Positions 2,919 through 39,477 of a stretch of DNA of 41,015 nucleotides are shown here, piece after piece (the stretch's first letter is position 1; each line of letters starts with the position of its first letter). The position numbers and the translations under genes are program-made. The DNA is taken from the IMG/VR virus record IMGVR_UViG_2537561977_000014; one strand, 5' to 3'. The notes beneath the pieces were generated by a model. That model was not told the DNA's origin. It saw only the letters and a program-made list of their open reading frames with translations, and searched no databases. This DNA is from a virus. Its lineage: Duplodnaviria; Heunggongvirae; Uroviricota; Caudoviricetes.

Positions 2919-4630
2919 ATCATCAGCTTTTTCCGTTTACTTCGGCTCTTCTTCCTGTGCTTCATCTGGTTTTTTTCGTCAAAAGTTTCCTGATAAGTTG
3001 CGTCTCCCATCACCGCGCCACAGTCAGGGCAGTTATCCTCGCCAGTCTGATTGCAGGGTGTTCCCTCCTCCGGTTCGCTGTTCTGGTGCTGTTTATCTTC
3101 AGTCTGTCGCACTTCATTTTCCGTTTTTTTGACTTCATTTGAGGAGATATGATGACCGGGAATCCATTTCGAATCATTCGGGTCGCTAATCCCTTCAACA
3201 AATTCTCCGCGAGAGGCAGCCAGTAATTTGTCTGCATCGACAGGATTTTTGGGCGGAATGTTTTTCTGGGCTTCATGGAGTTCTGTCCGCAGTTTCTGAT
3301 ATTTCGCATCAACAGCATTTACCTGTGACTGAGTATCCAGCGGCTGCGTGTCCTGATGATGTTCAGTTGCATCCGGTTCCACTGTTTCAGCCGTTGCCTG
3401 TTCATCTGCCATTGCGCAAGATGGTTGCGGTTTTTCTTCATCATCCTGTTTTCCTTCTTCTGTTACACGTTGCGGCATCGGGGCAGAGGAGCGACCGCAG
3501 GCAATATCCACGATTTCCGGATCAGGGTTGGCATGATCGGTTTCAGTCAGTACCTTGTTCAGATATTCAGTGACGTGCGCGGGGATGACCTCGATACCAA
3601 TCGGTGCTTCTTTCACTAACGCAACCACGATGGCGCGGGAATAATCCATCCCGCCAGGCATGGTGATGAATTTGTCGCGGAAAACAGAAAAGGGCGGTTT
3701 ATTTTCAGCGATAATTTCCTCGACACGTTTAGCGTGTGCCGGATGAAGGTTATAAATGTCCACGTCCATTGAACGAGCCAGTACGCCAGTGGCTACGTCG
3801 CGCGCCAGTGACGTCAGATCGTGAACGAAACCTTCGCCGCGATCGGTGAGGTTCCCGCCGCCAGCATTAGCACCGGAAGCCGTGCGAGTGATACGCGAAA
3901 CACGATTTCCTTTCATCCACTCTTTTGTCAGCAGACCGCGATCGGTGTAGTTGGCATCCAGATATGCTTCGAAAAAAGCAGTCATCAGTCCCAGATTTGA
4001 ATTGCCAGGATTAGGGAAAACTTTGTCAGTATCACGCACGAGTTTGTGGAGGTCGCGAATCTCCAGCGGGTCGAGCAGACTGGTTTTATGCGAAACAGCC
4101 AGAGCAGTAACAGCCGGTAGTTCTTCATCCCGAGCAATGTGTAATGCCTGGAGTTCGTCGCGTGAAACGTGCGTTACCGGTTTTTCGCTGCCGTGTTGCG
4201 CAAGCCAACGAATGGGCAGTTCCTGACCGGAAACTGGCAGGAGCATGTTCTCCTCAATTTCTGTCATGTCTTCGCCGTTGACGTTGGTATTGTCAGTGCT
4301 GGCTGGTTTGTCCTGAACAGAGGGAGAAGATGCGATAAATACCATTGTGATGCCATCTTCCCCGCCTTTTTCGTAACGGTTGCAGAATTCCGTATCAAAC
4401 ACGCCTTCTGGTGGGAGGTCATCAACAACGGGCAAATTGACGCGAACAGGTTTTTTAAAGTCATCTTCATCGTAGCCAGCATCGTCAATCGCAACAGCAC
4501 CACGGGAGATGGCAATGGATAATTTTTTCGCTTCAGCCCAGTAAAAACCGCCTTTAATACCGAGGCGTTTTCTTACTTTGTCATTTTTTGCTTCGTAATA
4601 CAGTGGGTAAACTTGTTTATCGGTGCTCAT
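2828..4630 (-). CDS. Large acidic early-left-operon protein (~600 aa), function unknown; occupies the recE position of Rac-like prophages
   Basis: Long uninterrupted ORF; start chosen at ATG 4630 (MSTDKQ..), preceded by GAGG ~10 nt upstream; Cys cluster CPDC near C-terminus; no nuclease motif recognised by eye. Confidence 0.6.
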
Positions 4631-5872: not shown

Positions 5873-6140
5873 TTTAGTGGCCTCCTTAACTGTTTTAGTC
5901 TGCGATTACCAGTTAGTAGCTGGTGATCGGGTGTCAACTAGAGCCAGTTAAGAAGCTCCGGGCATATTCCCCTTACGGGTATTGTATTACGCCTCTCCAC
6001 CCGATCTTTGTACGGATGTGCCGTATTTCAGGCATAAAAAGCCGCAAGGCTATCGGGTGCGGATGACCGCTTAACTGTTTCTAGTGCGATCATCTTGCAA
6101 CAATGCAGGTTGCTTTGTCAATATCCCGGATATCAGAAAG

Positions 6141-8836: not shown

Positions 8837-9244
8837 TTATTTGTTTGCGCTTCTTTTGCGAGCTTTGAGTAGTTCTTCAAAAAGTTTGTTGAAATTTTCA
8901 ACTCGAGCACGCATCTCTGACAACAGGGCCTTTTGCTCTGACTCAGGCAGTGCGTCGAACAGTTGAAGTAACTCTTTTTGATCTTCTGTCAGAATGGCTG
9001 GCTGATTATCCGGGATCGGTTCGCCTGGTTGTTTATCTTCATCCCCAAAAAGAAGCCAAGTCGGTGAGCACTGAAGCGCTTGGCTCAGTGCGAATAATCT
9101 TTTCCCCGCCGGCTGTGTTTCATCTCTTTCCCATTGAGAAATTGTTACGTGAGCCACTTTGACCAGCTTACCTAATGCGGCCTGAGACAGTTTTAATTTT
9201 TTACGCCTATGTAAGAGGCGAGCACCGAAGGTTTCGTTTTTCAT
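8837..9244 (-). CDS. dicA: Prophage repressor, DicA-like (HTH_XRE)
   Basis: 135 aa; ..QAALGKLVKVAHVTISQWERDETQPAGKRLFALSQALQCSPTWLLFGDEDKQP..MRARVENFNKLFEELLKARKR closely resembles E. coli DicA; divergent from a DicC-like gene. Confidence 0.85.
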   Translation of the reverse strand: MKNETFGARLLHRRKKLKLSQAALGKLVKVAHVTISQWERDETQPAGKRLFALSQALQCSPTWLLFGDEDKQPGEPIPDNQPAILTEDQKELLQLFDALPESEQKALLSEMRARVENFNKLFEELLKARKRSANK

Positions 9245-9320: not shown

Positions 9321-9548
9321 ATGTTGAAAATTGATGCTATAGCGTTTTTTGGCAGCAAAACAAAGCTTGCCAATGCCGCAGGAGTTAGGCTGGCAAGCAT
9401 TGCTGCATGGGGGGAACTGGTTCCTGAAGGTCGCGCGATGCGCCTGCAAGAGGCATCTGGCGGGGAACTTCAGTACGACCCCAAAGTTTATGACGAATAT
9501 CGTAAGGCAAAACGACCTGGGAAGGTGATTCATGAAAATCAGGCATGA
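9321..9548 (+). CDS. dicC: Cro-like regulator, DicC-like
   Basis: 75 aa; MLKIDAIAFFGSKTKLANAAGVRLASIAAWGELVPEGRAMRLQEASGGELQYDPKVYDEYRK resembles E. coli DicC. Confidence 0.8.
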   Translation: MLKIDAIAFFGSKTKLANAAGVRLASIAAWGELVPEGRAMRLQEASGGELQYDPKVYDEYRKAKRPGKVIHENQA

Positions 9549-9954
9549 GCACATCGAATCAGTGCTGTTAGCCCTGGCAGCCGAAAAAGGGCAGGCGTGG
9601 GTCGCTAACGCAATTACTGAAGAATATCTGCGGCAGGGGGGCGGCGAATTGTCTCTGGTACCAGGCAAGGACTGGAACAATCAGCAGAATATCTATCACC
9701 GTTGGTTGAAAGGTGAAACGAAAGCGCAAAGGGAAAAAATTCAGAAACTGATCCCTGCGGTTCTGGCAATTCTTCCGCGTGAGCTGCGTCACCGACTCTG
9801 TATCTTCGATACCCTGGAACGCCGTGCATTACTGGCGGCGCAGGAAGCGTTGAGTACGGCAATTGATGCGCATGATGATGCTGTCCAGGCCGTTTACCGG
9901 AAAGCACATTTCAGCGGTGGTGGGTCGCCCGGCGATTCTGTCGTAGTGCATTGA
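9532..9954 (+). CDS. Early regulatory protein (140 aa), YdaT-like position
   Basis: ORF overlapping the dicC stop; size and position as in Rac ydaT. Confidence 0.5.
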   Translation: MKIRHEHIESVLLALAAEKGQAWVANAITEEYLRQGGGELSLVPGKDWNNQQNIYHRWLKGETKAQREKIQKLIPAVLAILPRELRHRLCIFDTLERRALLAAQEALSTAIDAHDDAVQAVYRKAHFSGGGSPGDSVVVH

Positions 9955-9998: not shown

Positions 9999-10417
9999 TG
10001 TAACGCTGCGAGCGTTACAAGGTGAAAACAAATGGCTTCAAACTGGATAAAGCTCGAGGTTATTACGCCGGATAAGCCGGAAATATTCAGGCTTGCTGAG
10101 ATTCTGAATATTGATCCAGATGCCGCATTAGGGAAGGTTATTCGCTTCTGGGCATGGGCGGATCAACAAATGATAGACGGTAATGCAGATTGTAACGCTC
10201 GCGGCGTTACAAAAAGTGCAATAGATCGCATCACTTTTATGTCTGGTTTTGCTGATGCGTTAATTCAGGTTGGATGGCTGGTCGAAAATGACGGTGGGCT
10301 TTCTCTACCTAACTTTGAACGTCATAACGGAAAAAGCTCTAAAAAACGGGCGGTTACAAACGAGCGAGTAACAAAAATACGCGAACTGAAACGAAAAGGT
10401 AACGCTGCCAGCGTTAC
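9999..10417. repeat. Three copies of a 21-bp palindrome (T/G)GTAACGCT-N3-5-AGCGTTACA at 9999-10019, 10191-10211 and 10397-10417
   Basis: Read directly; first copy just upstream of the replication gene, other two inside its coding sequence. Confidence 0.6.
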
Positions 10418-10814
10418 ACAAACGGATCAAAAAGCGTTACCAGAGGAAGAGGAAGATCTAAATACTGATCTCCCCCTAAATCCCCCTCGCCAAAAACGAG
10501 CGTCTAAAAAATTCGAGCCGGAGGCTATTGAGCTGCCCGATTGGTTGCCGGAAACACTCTGGCATGAGTGGGTCCGGTTCAGACAGGCATTGCGAAAACC
10601 GATTCGAACGGAGCAGGGCGCTAACGGGGCGATACGGGAACTGGAAAAATTCCGTCAGCAGGGTTTTACACCTGAGCAGGTGATTCGACACAGCATCGCC
10701 AATGAATACCAGGGCCTGTTCGCGCCGAAAGGTGTTCGGCCTGAGACGTTGCTCCGACAGGTTAACACCGTCTCGTTGCCGGACAGTGCGATCCCGCCAG
10801 GCTTCAGGGGGTAA
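10032..10814 (+). CDS. Phage replication initiation protein (O-like/YdaU-like)
   Basis: 260 aa ORF immediately upstream of a DnaC-like gene; contains internal palindromic repeats. Confidence 0.65.
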   Translation: MASNWIKLEVITPDKPEIFRLAEILNIDPDAALGKVIRFWAWADQQMIDGNADCNARGVTKSAIDRITFMSGFADALIQVGWLVENDGGLSLPNFERHNGKSSKKRAVTNERVTKIRELKRKGNAASVTQTDQKALPEEEEDLNTDLPLNPPRQKRASKKFEPEAIELPDWLPETLWHEWVRFRQALRKPIRTEQGANGAIRELEKFRQQGFTPEQVIRHSIANEYQGLFAPKGVRPETLLRQVNTVSLPDSAIPPGFRG

Positions 10815-10820
10815 CGGACC

Positions 10821-11567
10821 ATGAAAAATATTGCGACAGGCGGCGTTCTGGAACGCATCCGCCGACTGACCCCGCCACATGTAACCGCCCCATTCAGAAC
10901 GGTAGCGGAGTGGCGCGAGTGGCAACTTGCTGAAGGCCAGAAACGTAGCGAGGAGATCAACCGCCTGAATCGCCAGTTGCGGGTGGAAAAAATTCTGAAT
11001 CGCTCAGGCATCCAGCCGTTGCACCGTAAATGCTCGTTTGCGAATTACCAGGTGCAGAACGACGGCCAGCGATACGCGTTAAGCCAGGCGAAATCCATCG
11101 CCGATGAACTGATGACCGGGTGTACAAATTTTGCGTTCAGCGGAAAACCTGGTACCGGGAAGAATCACTTAGCGGCAGCTATCGGGAATCGCCTGCTGAA
11201 AGACGGTCAGACAGTGATTGTGGTTACCGTGGCTGATGTTATGAGCGCCCTGCACGCCAGCTATGACGACGGGCAGTCAGGCGAAAAATTTTTGCGGGAG
11301 CTGTGCGAAGTGGATCTGCTGGTTCTTGATGAAATTGGCATTCAGCGCGAGACGAAAAACGAGCAGGTGGTGCTGCACCAGATTGTTGATCGCCGGACAG
11401 CGTCGATGCGCAGCGTGGGGATGCTGACAAACCTGAACTATGAGGTGATGAAAACATTGCTCGGCGAGCGGGTGATGGATCGCATGGTCATGAACGGCGG
11501 GCGCTGGGTGAATTTTAACTGGGAGAGCTGGCGTCCGAATGTTAGCCATTCGAGGGTTGTTAAGTAG
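10821..11567 (+). CDS. Replicative helicase loader, DnaC/IstB-like ATPase
   Basis: Walker A GKPGTGKNHL and Walker B LLVLDEIG; typical lambdoid P/DnaC position. Confidence 0.85.
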   Translation: MKNIATGGVLERIRRLTPPHVTAPFRTVAEWREWQLAEGQKRSEEINRLNRQLRVEKILNRSGIQPLHRKCSFANYQVQNDGQRYALSQAKSIADELMTGCTNFAFSGKPGTGKNHLAAAIGNRLLKDGQTVIVVTVADVMSALHASYDDGQSGEKFLRELCEVDLLVLDEIGIQRETKNEQVVLHQIVDRRTASMRSVGMLTNLNYEVMKTLLGERVMDRMVMNGGRWVNFNWESWRPNVSHSRVVK

Positions 11568-11581
11568 TTTCAGGAGGATTT

Positions 11582-12004
11582 ATGGCGAAACCTTTTACTC
11601 CCGAACAGCGGGAAGAACTGAAGACGCGAATTGTGGAACTCGTGCATCAGGACGGTCGGGTCACGATTCGGCAGTTGTCAGATGAAACAGGTATCAGTCG
11701 TGCGTCTGTCGGTCGCTTATGCATGGAACTGGTCGCAAGTGGTGATGTATATAATTCTGGCTACGGCTTATTCCCGTCTGAACAGGCTCGCAAGGACTGG
11801 CAAAGCGCCCGCAAAAAACTCTCGAGAGTAAAGGTGAGGAAACCGGTTGTTGTTGATCCGGACCTTATCTGGTCATTACCTGACGGAGAAATACGCCGCT
11901 ACGACAGGCGCCTGAATATAATCTGTCGCGAGTGCCGGAAGAGCGAAGCTATGCAGCGTGTACTGGCTTTCTATCAGGGTAATTTTCAGGAGGCGATACT
12001 GTGA
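11582..12004 (+). CDS. Hypothetical nin-region protein, probable winged-HTH
   Basis: 140 aa; ..RVTIRQLSDETGISRASVGRLCMELV.. HTH-like segment. Confidence 0.5.
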   Translation: MAKPFTPEQREELKTRIVELVHQDGRVTIRQLSDETGISRASVGRLCMELVASGDVYNSGYGLFPSEQARKDWQSARKKLSRVKVRKPVVVDPDLIWSLPDGEIRRYDRRLNIICRECRKSEAMQRVLAFYQGNFQEAIL

Positions 12005-12565: not shown

Positions 12566-13252
12566 ATGACCCCAATAAACATATTTATGACAGTTGCTGA
12601 TTTCAAACGGCCCAAATTGGAGCTCCCAAACGGGGCAAACAAACTACTACTGCACTCTTGCTGTGCTCCATGTTCCGGTGAGGTGATGGAGGCGCTTCAG
12701 GCCTCGGGAATCGACTACACCATCTTTTTCTACAACCCGAACATTCATCCTCAGAAAGAGTATTTAATTCGTAAGGATGAGAATATTCGCTTTGCTGAAC
12801 AACACGGCGTGCCGTTTATTGATGCTGATTACGACACAGACAACTGGTTTGAACGAGCCAAAGGAATGGAATGGGAGCCCGAACGAGGGATCCGTTGCAC
12901 CATGTGTTTTGACATGCGTTTTGAGCGGACAGCGCTGTACGCCGCTGAAAATGGTTTCAGTGTGATCAGCAGTTCACTGGGCATTTCACGCTGGAAAAAT
13001 ATGCAGCAGGTTAACGACTGTGGGCGGCGAGCCGTCGCGCATTATCCGGGCATGGTGTACTGGGATTATAACTGGCGCAAGCAGGGCGGCTCGTCCCGTA
13101 TGATTGAAATCAGCAAGCGCGAAAAATTCTATCAGCAGGAATATTGTGGCTGTGTGTATTCTCTGCGCGATACCAATCTACACCGCAAATCTCAGGGACG
13201 CCCTCTTATCAAAATTGGTCAACTCCACTACGGTAAAGAAGAGAAGGAGTGA
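12566..13252 (+). CDS. Epoxyqueuosine reductase QueH-like (DUF208)
   Basis: Conserved [11 protein letters not shown] motif plus CTMCFDMR and EYCGCV Cys clusters typical of QueH/DUF208. Confidence 0.7.
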
Positions 13253-13479
13253 TTTTATGGGGCACCTTTCTGATTGATTTCATATTGGCGAGGTAAGTAG
13301 AATGACTGCGGGTGCTTGAGGCTATCTGCTTCAGGCATGAACACCAAAAGGCAGATAGAGAAAAGCCCCAGTTAACATTACGCGTCCGGCAAGACGCTTA
13401 ACATTAATCTGAGGCCAATTTCATGCTTTGCACATGTAGGTTAGCCTCTTACATGCCGAAAGGCAAGGAGAAGCAGGCT

Positions 13480-13635
13480 ATGAAGCAGCAAAAGGCGATG
13501 TTAATCGCCCTGATCGTCATCTGTTTAACCGTCATAGTGACGGCACTGGTAACGAGGAAAGACCTCTGTGAGGTACGAATCCGAACCGGCCAGACGGAGG
13601 TCGCTGTCTTCGTAGACTACGAATCCAGGAAGTAA
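13480..13635 (+). CDS. hok: Hok/Gef-family type I toxin (HokD/RelF-like)
   Basis: MKQQKAMLIALIVICLTVIVTALVTRKDLCEVRIRTGQTEVAVF.. matches the Hok family; GC-rich fold-back hairpins and terminator in 13640-13760. Confidence 0.8.
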   Translation: MKQQKAMLIALIVICLTVIVTALVTRKDLCEVRIRTGQTEVAVFVDYESRK

Positions 13636-15839: not shown

Positions 15840-15916
15840 GGCCCTTTAGCTCAGTTGGTCAGAGCGAGCGACTCATAATCGCCAGGTCGCTGGTTCAAGT
15901 CCAGCAAGGGCCACCA
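15840..15916 (+). tRNA. tRNA with CAT anticodon, ileX/ileZ-like (tRNA-Ile2, or Met by anticodon)
   Basis: Cloverleaf folded by hand: acceptor GGCCCTT/AAGGGCC, anticodon loop CTCATAA, T-loop TTCAAGT, 3' CCA. Confidence 0.85.
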
Positions 15917-15917
15917 A

Positions 15918-15994
15918 CCACCACTAGCTCATCCGGATAGAGCATCAACCTTCTAAGTTGACGGTGCGAGGTTCGAGTCCTCGGTGGTGGGCCA
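15918..15994 (+). tRNA. tRNA-Arg (TCT)
   Basis: Acceptor CCACCAC/GTGGTGG, anticodon stem TCAAC/GTTGA, loop CTTCTAA, T-loop TTCGAGT, CCA. Confidence 0.85.
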
Positions 15995-15996
15995 GC

Positions 15997-16072
<76 letters not shown>

Positions 16073-16075
16073 TAT

Positions 16076-16150
<75 letters not shown>

Positions 16151-39461: not shown

Positions 39462-39477
39462 CTGTAAAAAACGATAC
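39462..39477 (-). promoter_or_regulatory. MxiE-box-like motif with downstream TATAAT (39437-39442) in the ipaH promoter region
   Basis: Minus-strand GTATCGTTTTTTACAG versus remembered consensus GTATCGTTTTTTTANAG; ~120 nt upstream of the ipaH ATG; TATAAT ~20 nt downstream of the box. Confidence 0.55.

Follow-up and report, generated by a model that had tools for sequence, protein, structure and literature searches.

The replication initiator gene of a Rac-like lambdoid prophage carries, within its coding sequence and directly upstream of it, three phased arrays of a 7-bp DNA site, GTAACGC (or GCGTTAC). We consider it probable, on comparative sequence grounds, that this heptamer is the site recognized by the N-terminal domain (N-domain) of the initiator, and that the three arrays together make up the replication origin of the prophage inside the initiator gene. 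We analysed the whole stretch of viral DNA in which the gene lies (41,015 nucleotides; the window), together with related loci. The part of the window around the gene corresponds to the early rightward operon of the prophage. The existence of a conserved DNA element is well supported by this comparison, which also suggests the assignment of the element as an origin.

A search of the whole window with TGTAACGCTNNNAGCGTTACA, allowing up to three mismatches, returned three places only, 9999-10019 (no mismatch), 10191-10211 (one mismatch) and 10398-10418 (one mismatch), against none in 100 dinucleotide-preserving shuffles. The preliminary description of this DNA had reported three 21-bp palindromes at 9999-10417, one upstream of the replication gene and two within it, about 190-205 bp apart. 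All three are there, though the last ends at 10418, and the spacing agrees, with centres 192 and 207 bp apart. The first palindrome is intergenic: the ydaT-like gene stops at 9954, and the initiator ATG is at 10032. The palindrome ends 12 bp 5′ of this ATG and touches the Shine-Dalgarno sequence AAGGTG. The other two lie inside the 260-aa ORF and, as the proposed NA(R/A)(G/S)VT peptides had implied, read out as CNARGVT and GNAASVT. The palindrome is real, but it is not the unit of repetition: the true repeat unit is the heptamer, and the palindromes are just pairs of this 7-bp half-site within larger phased arrays (Table 1). An additional exact half-site at 10434-10440 (translated ALP) therefore counts too, and the region holds seven exact half-sites within 442 bp plus a degenerate one, GTAATGC, which reads GTAACGC in most close relatives. 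The heptamer occurs 16 times in the window, compared with 3.75±2.08 expected, and 7 of the 16 occurrences fall within 10000-10440.

Table 1. Features of the initiator region, in window coordinates
Feature	Position	Strand	Description
DicA-like repressor	8837-9244	-	operon context
P22-Cro-like gene	9321-9548		operon context
YdaT/CII-like gene	9532-9954		operon context
Cluster A	9999-10019	none	perfect palindrome TGTAACGCT-GCG-AGCGTTACA; half-sites 10000-10006 and 10012-10018; intergenic, abuts the initiator Shine-Dalgarno
Initiator gene	10032-10814	+	260 aa; PHROG 2509; DnaT-like C-domain
Cluster B	10180-10211	none	GTAATGC at 10180-10186, then palindrome 10191-10211 (half-sites 10192-10198 and 10204-10210)
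Cluster C	10398-10440	none	palindrome 10398-10418 (half-sites 10399-10405 and 10411-10417) and GCGTTAC at 10434-10440
Polypurine tract AGAGGAAGAGGAAGA	10442-10456	+	codes EEEED; directly 3′ of the last half-site
Short AT-rich stretch containing two GATC sites, followed by two C5 runs CCCCCTAAATCCCCC (PLNPP)	10457-10486	none	common to K-12 ydaU
ydaV, DnaC/IstB-like AAA+ helicase loader	10821-11567	+	Pfam IstB_IS21, E=1.1e-19; named ydaV in RefSeq genomes

To compare relatives we assembled 27 genome loci, 160 viral contigs (of more than 580) encoding relatives of the N-domain, and six named phages; the viral scan gave close relatives alone with the initial alignment, and was rerun with an alignment of distant members. 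The arrays are conserved in hundreds of related phages. The heptamer is found at the same places in E. coli, Serratia, Yersinia, Pantoea and Erwinia, as well as in contigs binned to distant phyla, labels that call for caution, and the position of the sites is kept in homologs down to ~33% protein identity. The 37 non-redundant GTAACGC-class loci have their half-sites in three clusters, upstream of the ATG, at about +148..+196 and at about +334..+426. Together these hold 236 half-sites, counts that do not represent independent events, since the loci are related by descent. Thirty lie upstream of the ATG (in 15 of the 37 loci, mainly an enteric subgroup), 104 at +130..+215 (at least two in every locus) and 102 at +320..+460 (at least two in 31 loci), against none in the coding DNA between clusters and 23 in the 127,921 bp of remaining flanks. 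The upstream palindrome is, then, lineage-specific. The preliminary description had proposed a search for further copies in related phages and had named their absence from orthologous replication genes, together with a lack of protein binding, as what would speak against it; further copies were found, and the in-gene half-sites are kept, those of cluster B in all of the 37 loci.

In most loci, a blind 7-mer count of the region ranked GCGTTAC first. Little sequence preference is seen beyond the heptamer. Neighbouring sites are phased, with gaps of 12 bp (88 cases), 11 bp (13), 22-24 bp (24) and 33-35 bp (17); the 12-bp pairs include 61 inverted and 26 direct ones. Two relatives show other placements. 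Phage epsilon15 (L191, 1554-1606 and 1833-1874) has its first in-gene cluster, four copies of GTCCGC, at +54..+100 instead of +148..+196, so cluster B does not keep one position throughout the family. In a contig binned to Gallionella (L024, 779-1909) an HNH-like cysteine/histidine segment is inserted in the linker of the homolog, and the half-sites and GA tract are shifted to ~+640..+700 of the gene.

The in-gene sites are encoded in parts of the protein where repeated peptides are also seen, and it has to be asked whether the DNA repeats could be a by-product of selection on a repeated peptide (NAxSVT, EKRRE/EEEE). Indeed, the N-A and S-V-T segments are conserved at the protein level. We regard this explanation as most improbable, because the synonymous positions are fixed as well. 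In alignment columns picked by amino-acid conservation, Gly50 is encoded by GGT in 34 of 35 sequences (background 27%), Ser58 by AGC in 28 of 28 (background 15%) and Val59 by GTT in 31 of 33 (background 45%). Where other residues replace Gly50 or Ser58, NGT or NGC codons are retained; the residue before N-A may be C, S, G or R, yet its codon is always NGT. Depending on frame and strand, the heptamer is translated as xNA, SVT, ALP (in a nearly invariant QKALP), VTQ or SRN, and it also occurs in non-coding DNA, in cluster A of the window and in two contigs. When 51 distinct close relatives are compared, polymorphism affects 10 of the 15 columns in the 5-bp spacers that separate the palindrome arms, and 8 of 56 half-site positions. 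Finally, the structure model predicts disordered loops for the peptides that the sites encode. The GA tract was also considered here: reading it in three frames as proof of DNA-level selection was withdrawn, since the 5-nt repeat (GAGAA)n yields the same peptide, EKRRE, in every frame, so that frame changes there prove nothing alone; a count of Arg codons within purine runs is partly circular. The synonymous codons of the half-sites are fixed so as to preserve the site, in a clear case of DNA-site constraint moulding a protein sequence. The simultaneous coding and DNA-site constraint supposed in the preliminary description thus fits the comparative data, and the binding sites and the purine tract seem to dictate most of the loop and linker peptides (xNAxSVT, KALP, EEEE/EKRRE). 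In the two contigs mentioned above (L314, ~3230-3340; L267, ~1000-1290), GTAACGC/GTCACGC palindromes and a GA tract lie where there is no long ORF, which means that the module can occur outside coding DNA as well; these short contig pieces show no initiator gene.

The sequence of the half-site varies between lineages, and it does so in concert: there are at least seven variant forms of the half-site, and each is common to clusters B and C of its locus. The forms are CTAACGC (L019, L025, L140, L182), GTCACGC (L116, L151), GTGACGC (L127), GTAACGG (L186), TGTCACA (L026, L109, L111 and a Vibrio phage), GTCCGC (epsilon15) and TGTAGAC (Ralstonia phage Raharianne). The genes flanking the arrays vary (cytosine methylase, Roi, DnaB, DnaC, RuvC, hypothetical proteins), as do the C-terminal domains of the initiators, and the N-domain is the only constant partner of the arrays. 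K-12 Rac, whose initiator YdaU has a DUF1376 N-domain, carries five copies of TGTTCAAACA in the corresponding linker; the swap of the N-domain accompanies a swap of the site. The K-12 linker itself (L188, 2357-2463) holds (A/G)TGTTCAAACA five times, four of the copies being direct and one inverted; an A-rich stretch and two C7 runs come next. An active origin of Rac, oriJ, is cited in the literature, in passages that give it no sequence-level position (PMC3945230); L188 2357-2463 may be regarded as a candidate for that location. No simple rule emerged when the N-domain residues were checked by eye for those that track the site variants. The variants offer a natural set of specificities for this winged-helix-like domain, which no Pfam family covers.

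This pattern bears on the identity of the binder. Several DNA-binding proteins are encoded within 2 kb of the sites, and palindromes suit dimeric helix-turn-helix regulators, so that the ligand might be a DicA-like, Cro/DicC-like or YdaT/CII-like protein, the DUF977 protein or a host factor. We find this very unlikely. Arrays of GTAACGC stand beside differing neighbours in TL-2011b, Xanthomonas phage CP2 and Pseudomonas phage PAN70, and variant arrays are found in epsilon15, Raharianne and the Vibrio phage. The site variants differ between phages of related hosts, which argues against a host factor. The published site of YdaT is reportedly TTGATT-N6-AATCAA, unlike the heptamer. The alternative raised in the preliminary description, operators for DicA/DicC or another regulator, is accordingly disfavoured, since the same arrays occur beside a methylase, Roi, DnaB or RuvC gene. 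Concerted variants, together with a swap of the N-domain that goes with a swap of the site, are what an initiator paired with its iterons should show, and argue against DicA, DicC, YdaT, the DUF977 protein and a host factor alike.

Even with the initiator as the binder, the sites could be autoregulatory operators only, at which the initiator or its dimer represses its own operon, with the origin elsewhere in the prophage. Inverted half-iterons serve as operators for plasmid Rep proteins such as RepE of F and RepA of pPS10; all three full sites in the window are inverted repeats, and cluster A abuts the ribosome-binding site of the initiator. We nevertheless think it unlikely that this is their sole role. 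The in-gene clusters are universal, whereas the upstream cluster is missing in 22 of the 37 loci, and no promoter-like (sigma-70-like) site was found near any cluster. Direct repeats, the 26 '>>' pairs at 12 bp, are common in homologs. The conserved polypurine tract at cluster C has no obvious role in repression, and the 41-kb window contains no second heptamer cluster outside 10000-10440. It is probable that the upstream palindrome, which most distant relatives lack, has a second role, as an autoregulatory or auxiliary site.

The sites could also act in the mRNA, as hairpins that, for example, control translation at the ribosome-binding site or affect processing or stability. Each palindrome folds stably (-13.9 to -16.3 kcal/mol, z=-2.0 to -3.7), and the first lies directly 5′ of the Shine-Dalgarno sequence. 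However, many of the homologous arrays are direct repeats, which are unable to pair, and it is the arm sequence itself that is fixed, not mere pairing, being the same in all clusters of a locus. In addition, there is no Rfam match at the sites, and no T-run follows any of the three palindromes on the sense strand. A hairpin function therefore appears highly improbable. The sole terminator-like hit was palindrome 3 on the minus strand, which we take as chance.

The protein encoded by the initiator gene matches PHROG 2509 'replication initiation protein', a name that is an annotation and not an experimentally derived function, with E=1.8e-87 (residues 1-260 on profile positions 1-277). No Pfam family matched the 260 aa at E≤0.01; NCBIfam returned nothing for the N-domain, and the N-domain profile found no match among PDB sequences. 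The protein consists of a winged-helix-like N-domain (~11-95), a disordered linker (~97-165) and a DnaT-like C-domain (168-260). In the AlphaFold2 model (mean pLDDT 66) helices at 16-25, 29-48, 61-68 and 73-80 are followed by a beta-hairpin at 84-91, an arrangement that is predicted to be winged-helix-like, a weak fold assignment: the top Foldseek matches of the N-domain in the PDB are all winged-helix proteins, none of them significant (E of 0.36 or more). The C-domain matches the C-terminal single-strand-binding domain of DnaT (PDB 2ru8_A, E=9.3e-5; 9zbt_D, E=2.7e-4). Model confidence is low at residues 54-57, 97-114 and 120-158. Cluster B codes for the loop GNADCNARGVT (residues 50-60), which in homologs tolerates insertions made of more xNA/SVT units with further half-sites, and cluster C for disordered linker (pLDDT <50, residues 120-158); cluster C and the GA tract together supply the codons for residues 123-142. 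The sites thus sit where the protein tolerates almost any sequence.

Window positions 10453-10830 are 86% identical in DNA to K-12 ydaU/ydaV, and the first 420 bp are unrelated to K-12. Homology of the N-domain to DUF1376, the N-domain of K-12 YdaU, was tried and rejected (hhalign probability 0.1%, alignment A2 versus A4). With an N-domain unrelated to DUF1376 and a YdaU/DnaT-type C-domain, the protein is therefore a chimera of modules. Its presumed partner is the helicase loader YdaV, encoded next to it. Variants in E. coli and Salmonella (P0013, P0028, P0065 and ~45 similar) are 374-380 aa long and retain both the N-domain and the C-domain, with a ~115-aa insertion, carrying no Pfam annotation, following the acidic tract. 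After ydaV, at 11582-12004, comes the gene for the DUF977 protein, which has a winged-helix match and is a 'Ren-like exclusion protein' in PHROG; the sites can be explained without it. A gene for the epoxyqueuosine reductase QueH, a tRNA modification enzyme, lies downstream of the replication module at 12566-13252 (Pfam E=1.9e-65). Elsewhere in the window, Rfam matches were obtained at 1079-1257, 13310-13635, 15840-16147, 39470-39652 and, on the minus strand, 5917-6006; the identities listed are RalA antitoxin sRNA, sok, four tandem tRNA genes, CssrB and sRNA-Xcc1, and sok adjoins a Hok/Gef ORF at 13423-13635 (Pfam E=1e-22).

The last half-site is followed, on the sense strand, by a polypurine tract of (GAGGAA)n or (GAGAA)n units, which has the form CCAGAGGAAGAGGAAGA in the window and enteric relatives and CCAGAGAAGAGAAGAGAAGAGAAGA in more distant members. 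A purine run of at least 12 nt is present there in 44 of 53 non-redundant loci, and in 43 of these the locus has no longer run elsewhere. Epsilon15 (Salmonella) and CP2 (Xanthomonas) carry an identical 23-nt string; their N-domains share only 33% and 47% identity, respectively, with that of the window. We regard the tract as a candidate DNA-unwinding or helicase-entry element. The plus strand is strongly A-rich over 10320-10480 (GC 0.38-0.48). C-runs like those at 10457-10486 follow the tract in epsilon15, TL-2011b, PAN70 and Raharianne, and also in K-12 ydaU; this stretch may be a DNA element, perhaps part of the origin, or may encode a proline linker.

An exact 20-mer of the tract was found in 120 viral contigs, of which 117 had enough upstream DNA to be assessed. 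The N-domain is encoded just upstream of the (GAGAA)n tract in 109 of the 117; the other eight are one epsilon15-like deletion, two non-coding modules and five contigs with other initiator families. In these five (L263, L280, L306, L309, L315), whose N-terminal domains do not fit the profile of the N-domain described here, a CCAGAGAAGAGAAGAGAAG tract lies in the linker, with the family's own repeats directly upstream: GATATCA three times, ATGCAACG six times, CAAGC/GCTTCAAGC, and GAGCATGC. The N-domain of L315 is DUF1376 by Pfam (E=9e-14) and that of L306 is DUF1376-like by eye; L263, L280 and L309 have no Pfam match. Being common to unlike initiator families, the tract looks like a shared element, to which the repeats would add specificity, and this suggests that it may be a common core element of phage origins. 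A further, doubtful possibility is that the tract is a shared core-origin module, preceded by each family's own repeats, whose firing is coupled to transcription and which is opened by an R-loop in the frame of the initiator. Since the gene is transcribed through the tract, a purine RNA-DNA hybrid could form there: the purine-rich RNA would pair stably with the pyrimidine template, opening the duplex and perhaps priming synthesis beside the bound initiator, and the displaced purine strand might be caught by the DnaT-like domain.

Returning to the origin we propose, the co-variation of sites and N-domain suggests that the N-domain binds each heptamer. Initiators bound at 11-12-bp intervals in cluster C would build a nucleoprotein origin complex, while clusters B and A would serve as auxiliary sites or in looping; cluster C and the adjoining polypurine tract are likely to be the origin core. 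The duplex would open in the purine/AT-rich stretch at 10442-10470. If the known roles of DnaT and DnaC apply, the DnaT-like domain would hold the single strand, and the DnaC-like YdaV would bring host DnaB. Some observations weigh against this reading: no DnaA box was found near the sites, the DNA adjoining cluster C is just moderately AT-rich (GC 0.43-0.48), and the arrays are scattered, as three clusters over ~440 bp, whereas lambda and plasmid origins have compact blocks of iterons. In its favour, the sites lie in loop- and linker-coding DNA, as in ori-lambda. Overall, the idea put forward in the preliminary description, of initiator-binding sites and an origin within the gene as in lambda O, gains support from the comparison, through placement, fixed codons, reading frames and concerted variants. 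None of the records inspected carries a rep_origin feature at this locus, and a literature search returned no description of these sites or of the GA tract. The design of an in-gene origin is already known; for the version with these sites we found no earlier description.

A full-length match to the region is present in 679 of 5,426 complete E. coli genomes, and in inducible phages such as vB_EcoS-666R9. The arrays thereby provide a candidate sequence-level origin for the replication module in ~680 of these genomes; the module is also found in phages of Salmonella (epsilon15, SPN1S), Xanthomonas, Xylella, Ralstonia, Pseudomonas and Vibrio.

A close parallel in design is phage lambda. Ori-lambda sits in the O gene, in the DNA for the flexible segment between the N-terminal origin-binding and C-terminal recruiting domains. 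As in lambda O (and in P22 gene 18, phi80 and Stx phages), the repeats described here lie within the inter-domain segment of the initiator gene, dyad-symmetric sites are followed by a purine-skewed, lower-GC stretch, and the gene stands in the early rightward operon with a helicase-loader gene next to it. The window protein, however, lacks an O-type N-domain (Phage_rep_O/HTH_36; no Pfam match), and since neither this nor DUF1376 describes its N-domain, we place it in neither family. Ori-lambda has four contiguous 19-bp iterons and a 40-bp AT-rich block, whereas here there are 7-bp half-sites with 11-12-bp spacing, in three clusters over ~440 bp, and a GA polypurine tract. In place of lambda P there is a DnaC-like loader, with a DnaT-like C-domain in the initiator. 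K-12 Rac YdaU-YdaV shares the operon order (repressor, cro-like, ydaT, initiator, ydaV), a C-terminal half 86% identical in DNA and a short-repeat array in the linker upstream of the common part; it differs in its DUF1376 N-domain, in having TGTTCAAACA repeats instead of GTAACGC, and in having no GAGGAA tract. OriJ of K-12 Rac thus belongs to the other type of N-domain.

Iteron plasmids (RepE of F, RepA of pPS10/P1, Pi of R6K) likewise pair a winged-helix initiator (here winged-helix-like, and predicted) with repeated cognate sites, use one core in direct and inverted arrangement and offer a possible dual role in initiation and autoregulation. As in iteron origins, the short repeats are clustered far above chance and co-vary with the cognate initiator. 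Plasmid iterons differ in being 17-22 bp long, with ~22-bp spacing, and in lying outside the rep gene; the window also has no DnaA box nearby. In Bacillus phage SPP1, G38P binds repeats in its own gene (oriL), at the domain boundary as in lambda, beside a melting region and hands over to a helicase loader, in the way envisaged here, but the protein family and the repeats are different, and no sequence relation was detected. E. coli DnaT shares the C-domain (residues 168-260) and the pairing with a DnaC-type loader; DnaT, which works in PriA-dependent restart, has no sequence-specific origin domain, whereas here the C-domain is fused to a putatively site-specific N-domain. The system described here departs from the known examples in four respects: the 7-bp half-site, the three dispersed phased clusters, the GA tract and the DnaT-like C-domain.
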